Positions 682-16,255 of a stretch of DNA of 21,942 nt are shown here, piece after piece. The notes below the pieces were generated by a model, which saw only the letters and a list, made by a program, of their open reading frames with translations, searched no databases and was not told the origin of the DNA. The translations under genes were made by a program, and so were the position numbers. The stretch covers positions 1 through 21,942 of the forward strand of contig JAHQXC010000014.1 in NCBI GenBank assembly GCA_029856525.1, written 5' to 3'. Position 1 is the stretch's first letter. Each line of letters opens with the position of its first letter. The DNA comes from Candidatus Odinarchaeia archaeon. GTDB lineage: Archaea > Asgardarchaeota > Odinarchaeia > Odinarchaeales > Odinarchaeaceae.

Positions 682-885
682 CTTCATTAAGGGGAGTCCC
701 CTTCAGATATGGAGGAGATGAGAGCTGATAATCTTATAAAAGATATTGTTGCATTATAATCATAATAAAGATGTGGGGCTGGGACGCCCTGAGAAGCCTG
801 CTGAGACGGGGCCTGTACTGGTCGAAACACCGGCAAGCTCCATCATTGAAGCGGGAGGCCCCTTACGAAAGCAAGAGTAATTCAC
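682..885 (+). mobile_element. Non-autonomous IS200/IS605-family mini-element, copy E1 (no TnpA/TnpB)
   Basis: Preceded by TTTAA (677-681). Left-end hairpin AAGGGG-AGT-CCCCTT (689-703). 3' part resembles tnpB 3' ends (GCCTGCTGAG...GGCAAGCTCC...TTGAAGCGGGAGGCCCC, reading LKREAP) and ends GTAATTCAC. Aligns with E2 at both ends. Confidence 0.75.
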
Positions 886-5504: not shown

Positions 5505-5627
5505 AATATTAACTATTTATTTTATTTTCTAAAATTTCGCTTATAAAAGTATTTAATAGTTTATGTTACATTTTATAATATAGCAGTGTTTCCTCTCGTT
5601 CTTTTAAAAATTCAGGCGGTGGACTGT

Positions 5628-7445
5628 TTGAGCGAGGGTGAAAAGAAAAGTGTGCTTTTCATAAGTACATTCAATTCAATTCGCTCTCAGATCGCTGAAG
5701 CGTTATTAAATCATTTATACGGGGATTACTATGAAGCTTACAGCGCGGGTTTAAAGCCGACTGAAATCCACCCTTTAGCTGTTAAAGTTATGCAGGAGAT
5801 TGGCATCGATATATCCGGGCAGAAGCCTAAAAGTATTGATGAGATTGTCGGTTCGAGAATCTTCGACTACGTAGTTACTTTATGCGATGAAGCCTTTGAG
5901 AGTTGCCCGTATTTTCCAGGCGGTAAAAAATATATTCATAAAAGTATTGACGCCAGTTTTCAGGTTAAAGGCGAGCGGGAATTATATATAGAGAGTTTCC
6001 GACGGATTAGAGATGAGATTAAAACATTTATTATTAACACTTTTAAACCCGAGTCTTTAAAGAAGCCGTCTATAAAAAAGATTTTAGAGCTTCGCAAGAA
6101 ACCTAGCATGTTACTTAAATTTTTTAAGAAGCCTGAACCAGTTGAACGGCTTACCGCCCCTTTCCGCAGGTTTATAGAATTAGAAAGCTCTAGCGGCATA
6201 TTACTGCTCTTATGTCTTTCAACCGCTTTACTATTATCTAATATTTTAGGATCCATGTACTTGGATTTATGGGAGACAGAGGTTACTATAGGTATAGCAT
6301 CTTTTACAATAACTAAACCTCTAAGATTATGGATTAATGAAGGGCTTATGGCTGTATTCTTCCTGCTGGTTGGATTAGAGCTTAAACGTGAGTTTCTAGT
6401 AGGGGAGCTTACAACTTTTAAAAAACTCGCTTTACCTTTATTCGCAGCTTTAGGGGGCATGATATTTCCTATAGTGATCTACTCTATTTTAAACATGGGC
6501 GGTGTTGGTGTCGCAGGTTGGGGTGTTCCAATGGCAACAGATATAGCTATCGTTTTAGGTGTATTAACATTACTCGGTAGACGTATCCCTAACGGTTTAA
6601 AGGTTTTTCTCGCATCATTAGCTATAATAGATGATATTGGAGCTGTTGTCGCTATCGCTTTATTCTATCCGTCTGAAATTTATCCACCAGCCTTCATAGT
6701 AATAGCTGCTTTCACAGTAAGCCTGATCGCTATGAATTACCTCGGCGTTAGAAACATGATATTATACGGTGTGTTAGGCGTAGGCTTATGGTTCGGCTTC
6801 TTAGAATCCGGGGTTGAACCGGCTTTAGCAGGTTTAATTTTAGCTTTAATAATACCTTCTGGAAGAGCTTTAGAGCCGGAGGAGTTTTTAGATGTATGTT
6901 ACGCGTCGCTAGAGCAATTGGAGAAGACCGTTCCGCTTAAAAAAGGTGAAATAAGCATTGAAAGAGCTATGACAGTTAACGTGCTTGATAAAGCCTGCGA
7001 TATGACTGTTCCACCTCTGATTAGGCTTCAAGAGCACATTCACCCTTGGGTTGCGTTTCTTATAATCCCATTATTCGCTTTAGCTAACACTGGAATCAAT
7101 CTTATAGGTTTAGATATCGGATTCATTTTAACTCAACCGGTAACAGTCGGTATCATCGCAGGCTTATTTATCGGCAAGCAAGCAGGGATAACACTCTTCT
7201 CCTATATCTCAGTTAAATTAGGGTTGGCAAGCCTCCCCTCAGAAGTTAACTGGAAGCATATATACGGTGCAGCTCTACTAGGCGGGATCGGCTTCACAAT
7301 GTCGCTTTTCATAAGTAATCTAGCCTTTACTTCACTGATTCTTTTAGGTATGGCTAAAATAGGAATTCTACTCGGCTCTCTAACATCCGGTTTAACAGGG
7401 GTATTCTATTTGAAGACTGTTATAAAAGTGGAGAAGACGGTTTAA
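5628..7445 (+). CDS. nhaA: Fusion of an ArsC/LMW-PTP-like domain (catalytic Cys replaced by Ser) and a NhaA Na+/H+ antiporter
   Basis: N-terminal FISTFNSIRSQIAE...EIGIDISGQ...VTLCDEAFESCPYFPG...FRRIRDEI. C-terminal NhaA motifs WINEGLMAVFFLLVGLELKRE, PMATDIA, LAIIDD, GKQAG, GIGFTMSLFI. TTG 5628 (RBS GGCGGTGG) preferred over GTG 5586. Confidence 0.9.
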   Translation: MSEGEKKSVLFISTFNSIRSQIAEALLNHLYGDYYEAYSAGLKPTEIHPLAVKVMQEIGIDISGQKPKSIDEIVGSRIFDYVVTLCDEAFESCPYFPGGKKYIHKSIDASFQVKGERELYIESFRRIRDEIKTFIINTFKPESLKKPSIKKILELRKKPSMLLKFFKKPEPVERLTAPFRRFIELESSSGILLLLCLSTALLLSNILGSMYLDLWETEVTIGIASFTITKPLRLWINEGLMAVFFLLVGLELKREFLVGELTTFKKLALPLFAALGGMIFPIVIYSILNMGGVGVAGWGVPMATDIAIVLGVLTLLGRRIPNGLKVFLASLAIIDDIGAVVAIALFYPSEIYPPAFIVIAAFTVSLIAMNYLGVRNMILYGVLGVGLWFGFLESGVEPALAGLILALIIPSGRALEPEEFLDVCYASLEQLEKTVPLKKGEISIERAMTVNVLDKACDMTVPPLIRLQEHIHPWVAFLIIPLFALANTGINLIGLDIGFILTQPVTVGIIAGLFIGKQAGITLFSYISVKLGLASLPSEVNWKHIYGAALLGGIGFTMSLFISNLAFTSLILLGMAKIGILLGSLTSGLTGVFYLKTVIKVEKTV

Positions 7446-7561: not shown

Positions 7562-7666
7562 TTAGGCTTTTCTAGAGATTTGTGTTGAACCGCAGTTTTC
7601 ACATTTCTTCGGTTTGCAGCGCGCTTCGAAAAGCGCACCGCATTTATCACAGACGAAAACAGCCAT
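7562..7666 (-). CDS. 34-aa RCKP-type rubredoxin-like/zinc-ribbon microprotein (not in ORF track)
   Basis: MAVFVCDKCGALFEARCKPKKCENCGSTQISRKA*: two CxxCG knuckles and an RCKP motif. GAGG RBS 7 nt upstream and TATATAAA about 29 nt upstream. Confidence 0.85.
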   Translation of the reverse strand: MAVFVCDKCGALFEARCKPKKCENCGSTQISRKA

Positions 7667-7711: not shown

Positions 7712-7836
7712 AGTAGGCTAATCTCGCTTTCGTGAACTACCGCTCCCTATCGGAGGGGGCTTCCTGATCCAACGGGGGAGTTTACTGGTATTCTCTACAA
7801 TCAGCACGCGCATAGGACTGTTCAAGCTCTACACTT
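7712..7836 (-). ncRNA. Putative omega-RNA-like scaffold of E2 plus flank-derived guide (about 7731-7712)
   Basis: TATA-like TTTATAAT (7866-7859) about 25 nt before the block homologous to the E1 scaffold. Boundaries are approximate. Confidence 0.5.
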
Positions 7837-7917
7837 GTATCCTTTTTGAAGATTAGAAATTATAAATATCTTCCGGCTTCCACTTCCCGCTTTCGCAGGG
7901 GCTTTCCGCTGATAAAG
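7732..7917 (-). mobile_element. Non-autonomous IS200/IS605-family mini-element, copy E2
   Basis: Minus strand: TTTAA (7922-7918), then CTTTATCAGCGGAAAGCCCCTGCGAAAGCGGG left end. Right end CAGGAAGCCCCCTCCGATAGGGAGCGGTAGTTCAC (reads DQEAP) is a classic IS200/IS605 right end. Confidence 0.8.
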
Positions 7918-8127
7918 TTAAAGAGCTTCCGGTTTCAGCGATTAAACTTGCGGATGCGAGTAAAGTTTTTAGTTTTACCGGCGTGTATTCGACTTGTCTT
8001 ATGCCTACTCAAAAATATTATAGGAGAAAGGCATTATATAATTTTATCGTCTCTTATCCTCTTCCTGTGAAAGGAGAGTTGTTGAGATGAGTTTAGGTAT
8101 TTAACTTTACCGTCAGGAGGAGTTGCA

Positions 8128-9057
8128 TTGGATATTCTAGTAACAGGGGGTTGTGGATTCATAGGATCAAACTTAGCTTGCGCTCTTGTAGAAAAAGGCT
8201 ATAATGTGCACGTGTTAGATAATCTTTCAAACGGTAAACTTGAGAATATTAAAGAATATCTTGGTAATATAATATTTTGGAGAGGGGATGTGACTGATAA
8301 AAATTATGTTGATAATATTATATCTCGGGTTGACGCTGTTTATCATCTAGCAGCTCAGGTAAGTGTTGCAGCTTCTATTAAAGAGCCTGTAAAAGATGCA
8401 GCGGTGAATATCGGAGGGACCTTGAATATTTTACAAGCGGCTTCAACCTACCGGATTAAGAAAATAATTTATTATTCATCTGCAGCCGTCTACGGGGAGC
8501 CTGTTTATCTTCCAATCGATGAAAAACATCCTAAAAACCCTTTAAGCCCTTATGGTTTAAGCAAGCTTACAGGTGAGAAATATGCTGAATTCTACAGTAA
8601 ATTCTACGGGTTGAATATAGTTATCATACGCCCCTTCAATGTTTACGGTCCTAAACAGGATCCGCGCAACCCTTACACAGGAGTTATATCCACGTTTCTA
8701 GATAAAGCTTTACGCGGGGAGAGTATCCCCATCTACGGGGATGGGAGTCAATCCAGGGATTTCATCTACGTTGACGATCTAGTGGATTTATCTATTAAAA
8801 TACTTTCGAAGAATACTCCTCAATTCATCGCGTTAAACGGTGCATGCGGTGAGAGAACCACGATAAAAAGTTTAGCTGAGAGAATAAAAGAGTTAACAGG
8901 CTCTAATTCAAAAATAATATTTCTACCTAGAAGGGAAGGAGAAATCTATGAGAGCTACGCGGATATATCTGTTGCAAAACAGCTTTTAGATTTCAAACCC
9001 GTTTATAAAATAGACGATGGCTTAAAAAAACTTATAGAGTATTTTAAACGCGGATAA
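8128..9057 (+). CDS. Extended SDR NAD-dependent 4-epimerase, probably accepting UDP-GlcNAc/GalNAc (PelX/WbpP-like)
   Basis: TGGCGFIGS, SSAAVYG, YGLSK, FNVYGP. RREGEIYESYAD has Ser at the gatekeeper position. TTG start with RBS AGGAGGAG. Confidence 0.85.
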   Translation: MDILVTGGCGFIGSNLACALVEKGYNVHVLDNLSNGKLENIKEYLGNIIFWRGDVTDKNYVDNIISRVDAVYHLAAQVSVAASIKEPVKDAAVNIGGTLNILQAASTYRIKKIIYYSSAAVYGEPVYLPIDEKHPKNPLSPYGLSKLTGEKYAEFYSKFYGLNIVIIRPFNVYGPKQDPRNPYTGVISTFLDKALRGESIPIYGDGSQSRDFIYVDDLVDLSIKILSKNTPQFIALNGACGERTTIKSLAERIKELTGSNSKIIFLPRREGEIYESYADISVAKQLLDFKPVYKIDDGLKKLIEYFKRG

Positions 9058-9102
9058 CTTTTATTAACTAATAAATCGATTTTATATTAAGAGGGGGAGG
9101 AT

Positions 9103-10185
9103 GTGTCAAGCTCTGAAAACCTGCATTCAGATGAAAGCTTAGAATTAGAGAATATTCTAAACACCAGCTTCGACATAAAAATATACGATTACATGGTTAT
9201 ACACCGCCACGGCTATTCTATAATAAACGAGAAGCTTACATCAACGAAAATAGATTTAGATCTCACATCCGGATTGATTTCAGCGATAGTCTTAGCTTCA
9301 AAAGAACTTTTCAATACAGGTAAAGGGTTAAAAATACTAGACTTCGGTAATAATAGCATTGTATTAAGCTCCGGAGAGTATCTTATCATAGGTGTGATTA
9401 CAGAGTTTATAACAAGCGATCTTAAAAAATATTTAAAAGATTTACTAGAATATGTTGAACGGAAATACGCTCTTCTACTATCCGCGTGGACTGGTAACCT
9501 GGATGAAATCAAAACTGTGACAGAGATTATTTCAAAGGCGTTAACACCTTACATAATCCGGGAATTCAAATTTAATAAAGAGCTTAAATCGAAGGAAATA
9601 AACGAGAGCATGCTATTCAACATACGTGAACTTGATAAGATCACTATTAAAAATATTATCGACTTAGCCGGCGGCTTATCCTGTAAAATAGACGAGGGTA
9701 AAATTCTCTCGCTCTGCCGGCTTCTATGCAGTGATGCTTTAAGCTTCACAGAGCTGGAAAGCCTTCTCAACGTTGACAGAGATGTTTTAAAAGAGCTTCT
9801 ATCACGAATATCTAGTTTAGGAGTTCTACGAGTCTATAAGAAAACTAGTTTAAGAAAACTGTTAACACCTAAAACTAATATTAAAATAGCTTCACCTTCA
9901 GACTACGCTTTAAATATTTCTAAAATAGAGAGTAGTGATAGAGGTGCAGAGGTTGATTTCAAACTTGTGTTAGCTGATGATATTAAACCCGGAGGCGCGG
10001 TGATAGTCCCGGTTGTATTAGCGATGGTTAAAAGCGGGGAGATCATCATCCCTTATTTCATGAAGAATATTGAGAAATTGAGAGAGATAATCGGAAAAGA
10101 TGTTTTAAAAGAGGCGTTAAACGTTCAAGATAACCGTGATATAACGCTTCTGAAAACAATAAAGAAAATTGATTCACTATGGTGA
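9103..10185 (+). CDS. Longin/roadblock-like N-terminal domain plus winged-helix-like domain protein
   Basis: YMVIHRHGYSII...DLDLTSGLISAIVLASKELF...LKILDFGNNSIVL resembles Asgard longin/roadblock domains. LLCSDALSFTELESLLNVDRDVLKELLSRISSLGVLRV resembles a wHTH. RBS GAGGGGGAGG. Confidence 0.6.
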   Translation: MSSSENLHSDESLELENILNTSFDIKIYDYMVIHRHGYSIINEKLTSTKIDLDLTSGLISAIVLASKELFNTGKGLKILDFGNNSIVLSSGEYLIIGVITEFITSDLKKYLKDLLEYVERKYALLLSAWTGNLDEIKTVTEIISKALTPYIIREFKFNKELKSKEINESMLFNIRELDKITIKNIIDLAGGLSCKIDEGKILSLCRLLCSDALSFTELESLLNVDRDVLKELLSRISSLGVLRVYKKTSLRKLLTPKTNIKIASPSDYALNISKIESSDRGAEVDFKLVLADDIKPGGAVIVPVVLAMVKSGEIIIPYFMKNIEKLREIIGKDVLKEALNVQDNRDITLLKTIKKIDSLW

Positions 10186-14300: not shown

Positions 14301-15253
14301 TACCGAATATATTCCTTTTATGTTTTATAGGAGCGTATAAGGCTTTAAACAAGCTGCATATAGTCGCCGCTGTCTATCTTACCGCTATAGCTTCGATGAT
14401 AGTGGTTTCCTTATATACGTCTTACTACACAGGTTTACTCGGTGTCATATCCTCTTATAGTATAAGTCTTATTTTAGCATGTGTTTTCCTAGCAGTCTAC
14501 CTTTTTAACCGTGTTCTTAAACCTGGTGGGCTGCCGTTAATTGAACCCGTCTTCTATACTAAACTGTTTAAAGAATCTGGTTTCAATTTGAAAGCTATTA
14601 TTTTAGGCGGTTTAATAATCAACCTGTTCATGTTAACAAGCTACCTGGTTTGGTTCATTTACGGCTGGAGTGTGACCGGTTATAGTGTGCTCTTGAACTC
14701 TCAGCTTCAAACACCGATAGTTATCTTCCAGTTAACTGTTTTCCCTGTGATAGGTGTAGCCGGGCTTTTAATTCGAAGGGTTGAAGAATACCTTAACGAG
14801 TTTAGTCGTCAGAAACTGTCTAAGAGGAAGGAGGCTGTGAACGCTTATAAAGATGTTTTAAAAGCTTATAGAAGACTGATTATAGGCGTCTCCGCCACCG
14901 CGATTATAACAGTCACACCTATCTCATATTTTTTGAAGGAGATTCTCTCATTCTTCAACCTTACTTTAAATATCACTTTGATAGATGTTGCCGCGCTTGC
15001 AGTGGGCTGGGTGTTATTCTCAATTCTTTTAGCTCAAATATTGTTTACAGCGATGATCAGTCTTAAATCAGGTTGTCTCAGCTTAATTATAGCTGTAGCT
15101 TTAACTCTTATCATATCTTTCACTCTACTTTTAACAGGTTTCTTAACCGCGTATACGAGTATTTTAACAGGGTTCGCAGCCGGTTTAACAGCGGCTTTAT
15201 TCTACTCGACGTTAATTGTTTTAAGAAGATTAAAACAGGTTTCACGGTTTTAG
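11360..15253 (+). CDS. Membrane-anchored polysaccharide deacetylase (PelA-DA-like) fused to a PelG-like multi-TM exporter
   Basis: Signal peptide and GATase-like/ThuA-like segment (YLENGGSIIG). CE4-like motifs TVDQD (about 12224), HSVTH (12440-12454) and LLWHD (about 12878). Ig-like segment and about 28 N-x-S/T sequons by hand count. The last ~440 aa are highly hydrophobic and start with a PelG-like pattern (GLFAATPLVFNL...YGLDYLTRKY). Confidence 0.65.
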   Translation: MTKIRRLTILLLLFLIIPFIFQPVKITGQPVSGVPFEVKPVGIVFSNLSLSWKQVGYDNSNISAPVILPFYVVESHIYMAGLRFEVLPEENITSSGVLERYSCIILPENTYISNSSRLTLLNYYREYLENGGSIIGFGYIGVKDENNTFYANRDLFWRELFNVKDNGFLNLSYSIKTLSHPITADYSLNTTIHSGGFGLDNITVNSTLINTQPFLKAVANETGVFLTYCGFASQIGAGRSVFINVYDLGLNPWFDRSTLLLKALQWCIFRDYPAIALQPTSGRLTWIFTVDQDWCFATVNTTNALRRLLTLADTYYFTFGWAIISEGPVKQSGEFYGFINWSACKPLFLEAYRKGNDLASHSVTHVYWDLTPVTDLRVLNELNLSKHQIEGNLSIPVTGLQVWGPGIWFSRYNASVYLPQVGYQYVTELSVEDFPYLMGWEFYYSGGGNIDFNKTVFVLFRQSYSDHNYFSPTQMNLNWSRAWEIERRNFDDAYRIGNGMPYTLLWHDYSIDNSSRLPLLYNILDYELWQRRDVYTCTPYEYYHRIQAHDMMKYNVTYYSNNTIRINLDTRSVSDEYLDYIAGQMIRFDNLSLYVKTVRIDSQEYLAYSNNTVILPKLTRGVHTITVTLDSQPSNQPHIIGCTAGGPVVASSTSEFFAFNFTSPKQRIGRVLVELNNTPVTIFVNRTLTDKWFYDGKTLILALNISGDTLIEVYYSRRFTASILNVDKRIYFPSDPVIVNYTLTNSYPFPLNLKIKAVISASNISLGESETVLTIGAGREYNGLITVQPQSGWPSTNLNVEIKVISGYAVLYSTSSVGGVYVYWFNGELLIASLSFIAVFTVIIAFTNRFIGSEKIKKIGGFFINGLFAATPLVFNLGLVLLLGYHYSQILNPVETNILALIYSIIIPVAFTFYGLDYLTRKYTLEAALSEDSALTKKYVKQSLLTSFYISITVTIVLLLFSIFTGLISLETVLPALICIIPNIFLLCFIGAYKALNKLHIVAAVYLTAIASMIVVSLYTSYYTGLLGVISSYSISLILACVFLAVYLFNRVLKPGGLPLIEPVFYTKLFKESGFNLKAIILGGLIINLFMLTSYLVWFIYGWSVTGYSVLLNSQLQTPIVIFQLTVFPVIGVAGLLIRRVEEYLNEFSRQKLSKRKEAVNAYKDVLKAYRRLIIGVSATAIITVTPISYFLKEILSFFNLTLNITLIDVAALAVGWVLFSILLAQILFTAMISLKSGCLSLIIAVALTLIISFTLLLTGFLTAYTSILTGFAAGLTAALFYSTLIVLRRLKQVSRF

Positions 15254-16255
15254 AGGGTAACCGCAGTAAGGGCAGAATTTGAAGTCGCGTTTTACAAGTC
15301 TTTTACATTTAACGCATAAAAGGTTGGGTAGATCTGTAAAACAGTAGGGGCAGATCTTCATATGAGGCTGGATCGTCGACTTACATTTATAGCATTCGAC
15401 GAGCATGCTAGTTTTTAAGCCGTCTGATTCTTTAACCTGTGATTTAATTTTTTTAATAGTGTCAGATTTCTTTAAACCTAATTGTTTACGTATAAGCTCG
15501 ACGGGCACTCCTCTAATCAACTGCAAGTATATAAAAGTGTTTCTAAGGGTTTGCGGGGTAATCTTATAGGGTATACTGCAGGTTTTAGAAAGCTTCTCCG
15601 TGATATTCTTGAATATAAAGTTTAGGGTTGCGTAGCTTAACTTATCATGGGCTTTATTAACGCCGGTTGAGAAGATTAGGTCATCTTCTTTTAAATAGCT
15701 TTTAGAATTGATGTAATCTGTAAGATAGGTTTGAACTATATCTGGAAGGTTTAAAACTCTATAAGGTGGGAGAGGGGACATTATAATCGACTGTTCGAAA
15801 ATATTCTTTTTACGTAGATTAATAAGCTCAGATGTTCTAATACCTGTCTCCGTGAATAATGCGATGATAACTCTGTCACGCGGGTTATCTGTGCATTCGT
15901 ATAATGCTTTAAGCTGTTCTACGCTGAGGAAGCAGGGTTCTCTTATAGGATAAGATTTAGGATAGGTTACTTTCACGTTCAAGCCGAGCTCTCTTAGAAA
16001 ACGTTGAATAACGCGACTGTAGCGTGTAACGGTGGATGGTTTTTTACCCTGGTTTAAAAGGTTTATCTGCCAGTCTTGTATGTCGACGTCTTCTACTTGT
16101 TTAAGATCTTTACCGTTAATTTTTTTTAAAAAAAGTTTTAGAATTTTAACCTCGCCTTCAATCGTTGACTCTGATTTACCCTGCTCGCCTAGTGTTTTAA
16201 TGTATTTTTCAACGTAAACGTTTTCTTTAAAAGACATGTTATTAAAATTAACCAT
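15242..16255 (-). CDS. Xer-like tyrosine recombinase fold with degenerate active site and C-terminal double zinc ribbon
   Basis: ETGIRTSELINL and ITPQTLRNTF, LGL in place of LGH, and no catalytic Tyr. C-terminus CYKC..CPYC..CVKC..CPYCG. Overlaps the convergent gene by 12 bp. Confidence 0.85.
   Translation of the reverse strand: MVNFNNMSFKENVYVEKYIKTLGEQGKSESTIEGEVKILKLFLKKINGKDLKQVEDVDIQDWQINLLNQGKKPSTVTRYSRVIQRFLRELGLNVKVTYPKSYPIREPCFLSVEQLKALYECTDNPRDRVIIALFTETGIRTSELINLRKKNIFEQSIIMSPLPPYRVLNLPDIVQTYLTDYINSKSYLKEDDLIFSTGVNKAHDKLSYATLNFIFKNITEKLSKTCSIPYKITPQTLRNTFIYLQLIRGVPVELIRKQLGLKKSDTIKKIKSQVKESDGLKTSMLVECYKCKSTIQPHMKICPYCFTDLPNLLCVKCKRLVKRDFKFCPYCGYPLKP

Follow-up and report, generated by a model that had tools for sequence, protein, structure and literature searches.

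Palindrome-associated transposable elements (PATEs) were described in Haloquadratum walsbyi as elements that lack terminal inverted repeats and a transposase, carry near-terminal hairpins and do not duplicate their target (PMC3119063). They share their ends with IS605-type transposons, the copies are heterogeneous, and one type retains tnpB C-terminal sequence; six insertions of one PATE into another were counted, and terminal-only forms of about 50 bp were found (PMC3119063). The PATE-like elements of Geobacillus stearothermophilus are IS605 elements without genes, which frequently code for omega-RNAs and would depend on a supply of TnpA and TnpB in trans (PMC10055086). IS608 inserts 3′ of its target without duplication (PMC3201880), and the IS605 elements of Sulfolobus islandicus (SisTnpB1/TnpB7) have TTTAA as insertion site and transposon-adjacent motif (TAM), and TTCAC as ending motif (PMC10640517, PMC11043419). 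These S. islandicus elements encode tnpA and tnpB and have been shown to cut, and the likeness discussed here concerns only their TTTAA and TTCAC motifs. ISC1733 is an IS200/IS605-related element. It mobilises SMN1 of S. islandicus, a non-autonomous element of 320 bp, in trans (PMC3718332). SMN1, whose mobility with a resident transposase has been demonstrated, is longer than E2, the element reported here, to which it is likened by description.

E2 lies in a stretch of 21,942 nucleotides, hereafter the window, which is contig C119 of an Odinarchaeum assembly (1.32 Mb, 93% complete, 127 contigs). The host is assigned to this Asgard genus because G002, a congeneric genome, encodes proteins recorded for Candidatus Odinarchaeum yellowstonii LCB_4. 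We consider it very probable that E2 is a non-autonomous IS605-family relic, a PATE, which was mobilised in trans, whose cognate genes have been lost or are unassembled, and whose copies are drifting. Every PATE trait that could be tested was found in the E2 family, and nesting and terminal-only forms were seen as well; the family differs from the H. walsbyi PATEs in its Odinarchaeum host, its TTTAA/TTCAC ends and a TATA box before the scaffold in most copies. In G. stearothermophilus the cognate TnpA and TnpB are present and omega-RNAs are expressed, whereas the E2 family has no cognate protein in the assembly and its omega-RNAs are putative.

Results

E2 belongs to a multi-copy, gene-less family

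The features of E2 and its surroundings are listed in Table 1. Hairpins lie near both ends of E2, and the terminal CTT and TTCAC are not complementary, i.e., there are no terminal inverted repeats; as there is no target duplication either, classification as a MITE was ruled out. No ORF of at least 80 aa overlaps the 186 bp, and an Rfam search of the window gave no match at E values up to 1. The BRE/TATA-like box is a putative promoter inherited from the left end of the parent. By the IS608 rule, AAGT fits TTAA, and GAAG fits TCAC, in base pairing. The covariance model score of E2 given in Table 1 was obtained with E2 itself in the training set.

Table 1. Positions of E2, E3, E1 and neighbouring features in the window.
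Feature	Position	Strand	Remarks
E2	7732-7917	(-)	186-bp gene-less IS605 deletion derivative (PATE); profile search, covariance model 64.9 bits
TTTAA target / transposon-adjacent motif of E2	7918-7922	(-)	outside E2, within E3 right-end hairpin
E2 left end	7886-7917	(-)	conserved first bases; layout as in IS608 (PMC3201880)
Tetranucleotide at foot of E2 left hairpin	7901-7904	(-)	AAGC; AAGT in tnpB-bearing relatives
GAAA-capped left hairpin of E2	7886-7900	(-)	
BRE/TATA-like box of E2	7861-7873	(-)	motif present in 18/22 copies; same box precedes tnpA start in locus L054
E2 scaffold remnant (tnpB 3′ end / omega-RNA)	7732-7829	(-)	aligns to end of tnpB pseudogene L090
E2 right end	7732-7771	(-)	
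Pseudoknot 5′ strand TGGAT in E2 right end	7767-7771	(-)	
GAAG at foot of E2 right hairpin	7760-7763	(-)	
Right hairpin of E2	7740-7758	(-)	
Terminal TTCAC of E2	7732-7736	(-)	last base at 7732; TTCAC also ends Sulfolobus IS605 (PMC11043419)
E3	7713-8091	(-)	older, more decayed copy hosting E2; 193 bp with E2 removed
E3 left 174 bp	7918-8091	(-)	blastn matches to copies C13, C111, C14 and C31 (E 2e-14 to 5e-4)
E3 left hairpin	8058-8078	(-)	
E3 TATA-like box	8034-8048	(-)	
E3 scaffold remnant	7926-7952	(-)	
E3 cut-off right end = predicted guide of E2	7713-7731	(-)	13/19 in register with last 19 bases of E1
CTAAA	8092-8096	(-)	ATAAA in G001, ATTAA in G003 at empty site
E1	682-885	(+)	another subfamily of the E2 family; TTTAA at 677-681
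34-aa CxxC/CxxC zinc-ribbon gene	7562-7666	(-)	downstream of E2/E3, conserved in sister species; weak Zn_ribbon_8, below cut-off
NAD-dependent epimerase gene	8128-9057	(+)	divergent from zinc-ribbon gene

A preliminary description of this DNA had assigned E1 and E2 to one family, with left ends that align gap-free (19/27 identical), pre-right-end blocks identical at 24/34 positions and TTCAC at both right ends. Ungapped alignment and recounting reproduced these figures, and the assignment was borne out genome-wide. Over the whole alignment E1 and E2 are 58% identical; the nearest copies of E2 are 77-79% identical to it, and blastn matches of E2 on other contigs reach E 1.6e-37, far beyond chance. 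An iterated DNA profile yielded 35 hits in the host genome, 18 of them full length by a strict cut-off; the number of full-length copies of this IS200/IS605-derived family is about 20. A set of 22 copies of 159-235 bp was curated. TTTAA precedes 19 of these copies and TTCAC ends 15, the end being altered in the other seven (CTCAC in two). The copies share their ends while their flanks are unrelated, the sequences diverging directly outside the end motifs, and at least three subfamilies (E2-like, E1-like and E3-like) are set apart by the promoter region. Finding two copies on one contig of 22 kb is no surprise at this density (P about 0.05 for each contig of that length), and contigs C29, C51, C93 and C11 also carry at least two copies each.

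Some atypical arrangements were seen. Terminal-only forms of about 46-50 bp, in which TTTAA and a TCAC-like end enclose a single hairpin, occur at G000:C84:614-659 and L058:5106-5155. A pair of left ends on opposite strands, facing each other at a distance of about 200 bp, lies at G000:C3:4618-4823 (L118). The genome has a single tnpA-tnpB element (L006:1251-3127; G000:C44, about 8002-9880), which is immediately preceded by the left three quarters of a mini-element of the E1 type; the right part of this mini-element was not seen beyond the right end of the tnpA-tnpB element.

Insertion occurs 3′ of TTTAA without target duplication

At each of the five sites examined, the sister species (genomes G001-G003) are without the element. 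They are only about 80% identical to the host, and boundaries could be resolved to 1-3 bases at some sites. At site C29a, G002 and G003 retain TTTAA, where it forms the very end of a conserved gene. G001 and G002 do not carry E1 at the corresponding locus, and the boundaries of E1 and C29b agree with the empty sites to 1-3 bases; at C93a, divergence from the sister species prevented alignment of the junction. The proposed shared target motif TTTAA thus stood up to the empty-site comparison: it is kept once in empty sites, best at C29a, and the element begins at the next base. Insertion is therefore 3′ of a fixed target without duplication, and E3 likewise rejoins in register when E2 is removed (see below). 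The insertions presumably spread after the host lineage split from the sister species. Four left-end-like matches with one mismatch were inspected in G001-G003, and none was an element. A left-end-like string at 8101-8121 (+) of the window was rejected as host sequence, being present in the sister species too.

The family shares its ends and scaffold with tnpB-bearing elements of other Asgard archaea

The ends of the family were found around tnpA plus tnpB at locus L054, where tnpA is broken, and around tnpB alone at L016, L021 and L093. The L016 product carries PF01385, PF07282 and PF12323 and matches the TnpB structure 8bf8 at E 6e-48. The 3′ half of E2 aligns to the end of the tnpB pseudogene L090, save for a 14-nt deletion, and scaffold model R1, trained on local copies, finds the 3′ ends of tnpB genes in other Asgard genomes; both results uphold the suggested identity of the 3′ block as the omega-RNA scaffold of a TnpB. 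The scaffold covariance model has matches in 33 of 120 other Asgard genomes and in none of the three sister-species genomes, and the loci inspected were mostly 3′ ends of tnpB or tnpB remnants. The left end of the family was also found in Methanomethylicota genomes. A direct parent of the main subfamily was not found in metagenome contigs, nor were the family ends found in viral contigs.

An orthologous site in two Asgard genomes of the same genus holds a full tnpB in one (L088) and an internally deleted mini-element of about 250 bp in the other (L089), with alike flanks; judging from the two sequences, this pair appears to be a PATE arising in place. Further families of mini-elements, which end in TTCAC and have an additional hairpin upstream, occur at L013, L022, L027 and L107, in G004 and G005 (same order) and in G014, the last with several close copies of such a family.

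The copies appear old and decaying

The pairwise identity of the copies is 90% at best, with a median of 75%. Among 20 aligned copies, the 5′ scaffold hairpin is missing in 12, the left hairpin in 5, and the linker/pseudoknot segment before the right hairpin in 3. The 14-nt deletion in E2, at about 7800, removes the 5′ strand of helix P1 and is common to copy C78; as E2 and C78 sit at different sites, spread needed no intact scaffold. The rate of substitution in the scaffold did not differ from that in the promoter/spacer or the ends (p 0.08-1.0), in a test of low power with 10-19 private changes in each class. A trend to fewer such changes in the scaffold was non-significant, and the raw count pointing the same way was rejected as a signal of selection, since it was not significant once gap-adjacent columns had been removed.

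RNAalifold on a plain MAFFT alignment gave just one 5-pair helix, and the structure was then set by hand. In 14 ends from other genomes the named helices were 92% paired, with a covariation score of 0.48 and 43 doubly changed cells; in the 20 local copies they were 82% paired, with a score of 0.17 and 11 doubly changed cells, and 19 of 500 shuffles scored as high. Both alignments were fitted to the model, so that these pair counts lean towards it. Covariation, which the preliminary description had named as a test among copies, is thus strong in the ends from other genomes and weak among the local ones, supporting the scaffold structure as an ancestral feature and, weakly, among local copies. 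Of its alternatives of an old or a maintained family, the first stands; the second is not supported, given the decay of copies and the deletions that copies share in the scaffold and the left-end hairpin. All in all, the family gives the impression of age and decay rather than of maintenance.

It is accordingly improbable that the family is still live, i.e., that cognate TnpA and TnpB are just unassembled, that omega-RNAs are made from the copies' own promoters, and that TnpB protects the copies in trans by cutting empty sites, a role proposed for PATEs (PMC10055086). Such activity would fit the joint retention of promoter, scaffold and both ends in most copies (promoter boxes in 18/22), the slight trend to fewer private scaffold changes and the weak covariation above shuffles. 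Several family fragments also lie at contig ends (C85, C17, C31), and with an assembly that is 93% complete in 127 contigs, an intact parent may therefore be unassembled. However, no pair of copies exceeds 90% identity, tblastn of the assembly found no trace of a cognate TnpB, the helix-strand deletion of E2 and C78 recurs at different sites, and the predicted RNA of E2 folds no better than shuffles (z -0.75).

Resident TnpA and TnpB proteins are probably not the cognate partners

Besides the tnpA-tnpB element on C44, the genome has one solo tnpB, on C93. These resident elements carry other left ends, and that on C44 also another right end. Their TnpBs are about 23-25% identical to the TnpBs that share the family's ends, and tblastn of the 93%-complete assembly found only these 23-25% hits and no closer remnant of a cognate TnpB. 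The only TnpA in the assembly, that of the C44 element with its other ends, is 27-40% identical to TnpAs at scaffold-carrying loci. The earlier proposal of a host TnpB as partner of E1 and E2 was therefore not borne out. The solo tnpB (L001:497-1834, at the end of C93) is intact and encodes 426 aa; the contig stops exactly at its right end CTCAC, its target is likely TTAT, and it may be multi-copy or polymorphic. A short tnpB C-terminal remnant lies at L003:1360-1680 (C121), between two genes resembling hisF and hisI by sequence.

The absence of a TAM-plus-guide match for E1 or E2 from the window was confirmed and extends to the whole assembly. No guide of any copy has a perfect 12-nt seed match behind TTTAA in the genome, nor a 16-nt match with two or fewer mismatches behind TTAA; a single near match, preceded by TGAC, could have arisen by chance. 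Exact-match scans of viral and metagenome contigs, made for E2 only, found no target of its guide.

E3, the copy hosting E2, is inserted about 45 bp upstream of the zinc-ribbon gene, splitting the divergent promoter region of about 75 bp that this gene shares with the epimerase gene. The position of E2 and E3 between two divergent genes, with both TATA-like boxes pointing at the zinc-ribbon gene (7562-7666), and the intact TnpBs in the genome could suggest domestication, the RNAs of the copies serving as trans guides for the resident TnpBs (C44, C93) or host factors, or their promoters driving neighbours. We think this very unlikely, as the resident elements have different ends, no convincing guide target was found in the genome and none for E2 in the viral and metagenome contigs, and the insertion sites are not conserved in the sister species. 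Elsewhere in the window, a tyrosine-recombinase-like protein with a double zinc ribbon is encoded at 15242-16255 (-), adjoining a GT4/DUF3492 gene, and an LMW phosphatase/ArsC-like domain is fused to an NhaA antiporter at 5586-7445 (+).

E2 is nested in the right end of an older copy

At the site of E2, the stretch missing from the sister species measures about 380 bp and not the 186 bp of E2: host sequence resumes at 7712 and joins in register on both sides of 7713-8091 in G001 and G003. The insertion point of E2 is a TTTAA in the right-end hairpin of E3, an older family copy. In the alignment, this TTTAA is in register with the right-end hairpin of E1, and the last 45 bases of E3 match those of E1 at 30 positions, gap-free across the junction. 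The match of the cut-off right end of E3 to the end of E1 (Table 1) was reached by 30 of 200,000 random 19-mers. The CTAAA adjoining E3 is its probable decayed target. We give hardly any credence to the reading that E3 is no element and that the 20 bases after E2 (7712-7731) are ordinary host flank: the 19-mer is weak in a gapped local search (57 of 2,000 random 19-mers score as well) and the target and end of E3 are degenerate (CTAAA, CCTAC), but all of 7713-8091 is missing from the sister species, E3 without E2 has the size of the family, the 45-base match spans the E2 junction, and the left part of E3 has its own relatives on four contigs.

The bases after E2, taken at first for a host-derived guide, are thus 19 nt of the right end of E3 plus one host base, and the only possible target of this guide is the empty site of E2 itself. 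As bases after a right end may belong to the end of another element, predicted guides need an empty-site check.

Discussion

In our preferred reading of E2 as a trans-mobilised relic, a tnpA-tnpB transposon of the TTTAA/TTCAC type would have suffered an internal deletion, so that its left end and promoter came to lie next to the final ~100 nt of tnpB (the omega-RNA scaffold), followed by the right end. Spread after the split from the sister species would then have relied on a cognate Y1 TnpA acting in trans, by peel-and-paste insertion 3′ of TTTAA, and E2 would later have struck a TTTAA within the right-end hairpin of the older E3. The cognate tnpA and tnpB would since have been lost, or are unassembled, and the copies would now be drifting. 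E2 is presumably inactive at present; any RNA made from it would combine a damaged scaffold with a guide matching just its own empty site (E3 rejoined).

A more speculative idea is that PATEs with promoters serve as a reservoir of independent omega-RNA genes, whose products arise without tnpB mRNA processing and are read in trans by an unassembled TnpB, with nested guides aimed at the right ends of the family. We regard this as a long shot; if it were true, copies could act against each other.

PATEs with omega-RNAs, the nesting of one PATE in another and the TTTAA/TTCAC pair have all been published already, and E2 is a real but ordinary example. What is documented here is a burst of TTTAA/TTCAC PATEs confined to one Odinarchaeum lineage. 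Its significance is modest and would be greater only if copies were expressed and used in trans. The family also leads to intact TnpBs in Asgard archaea (L016, L093, L094), whose TAM can be predicted to be TTTAA and whose scaffold is supported by covariation.
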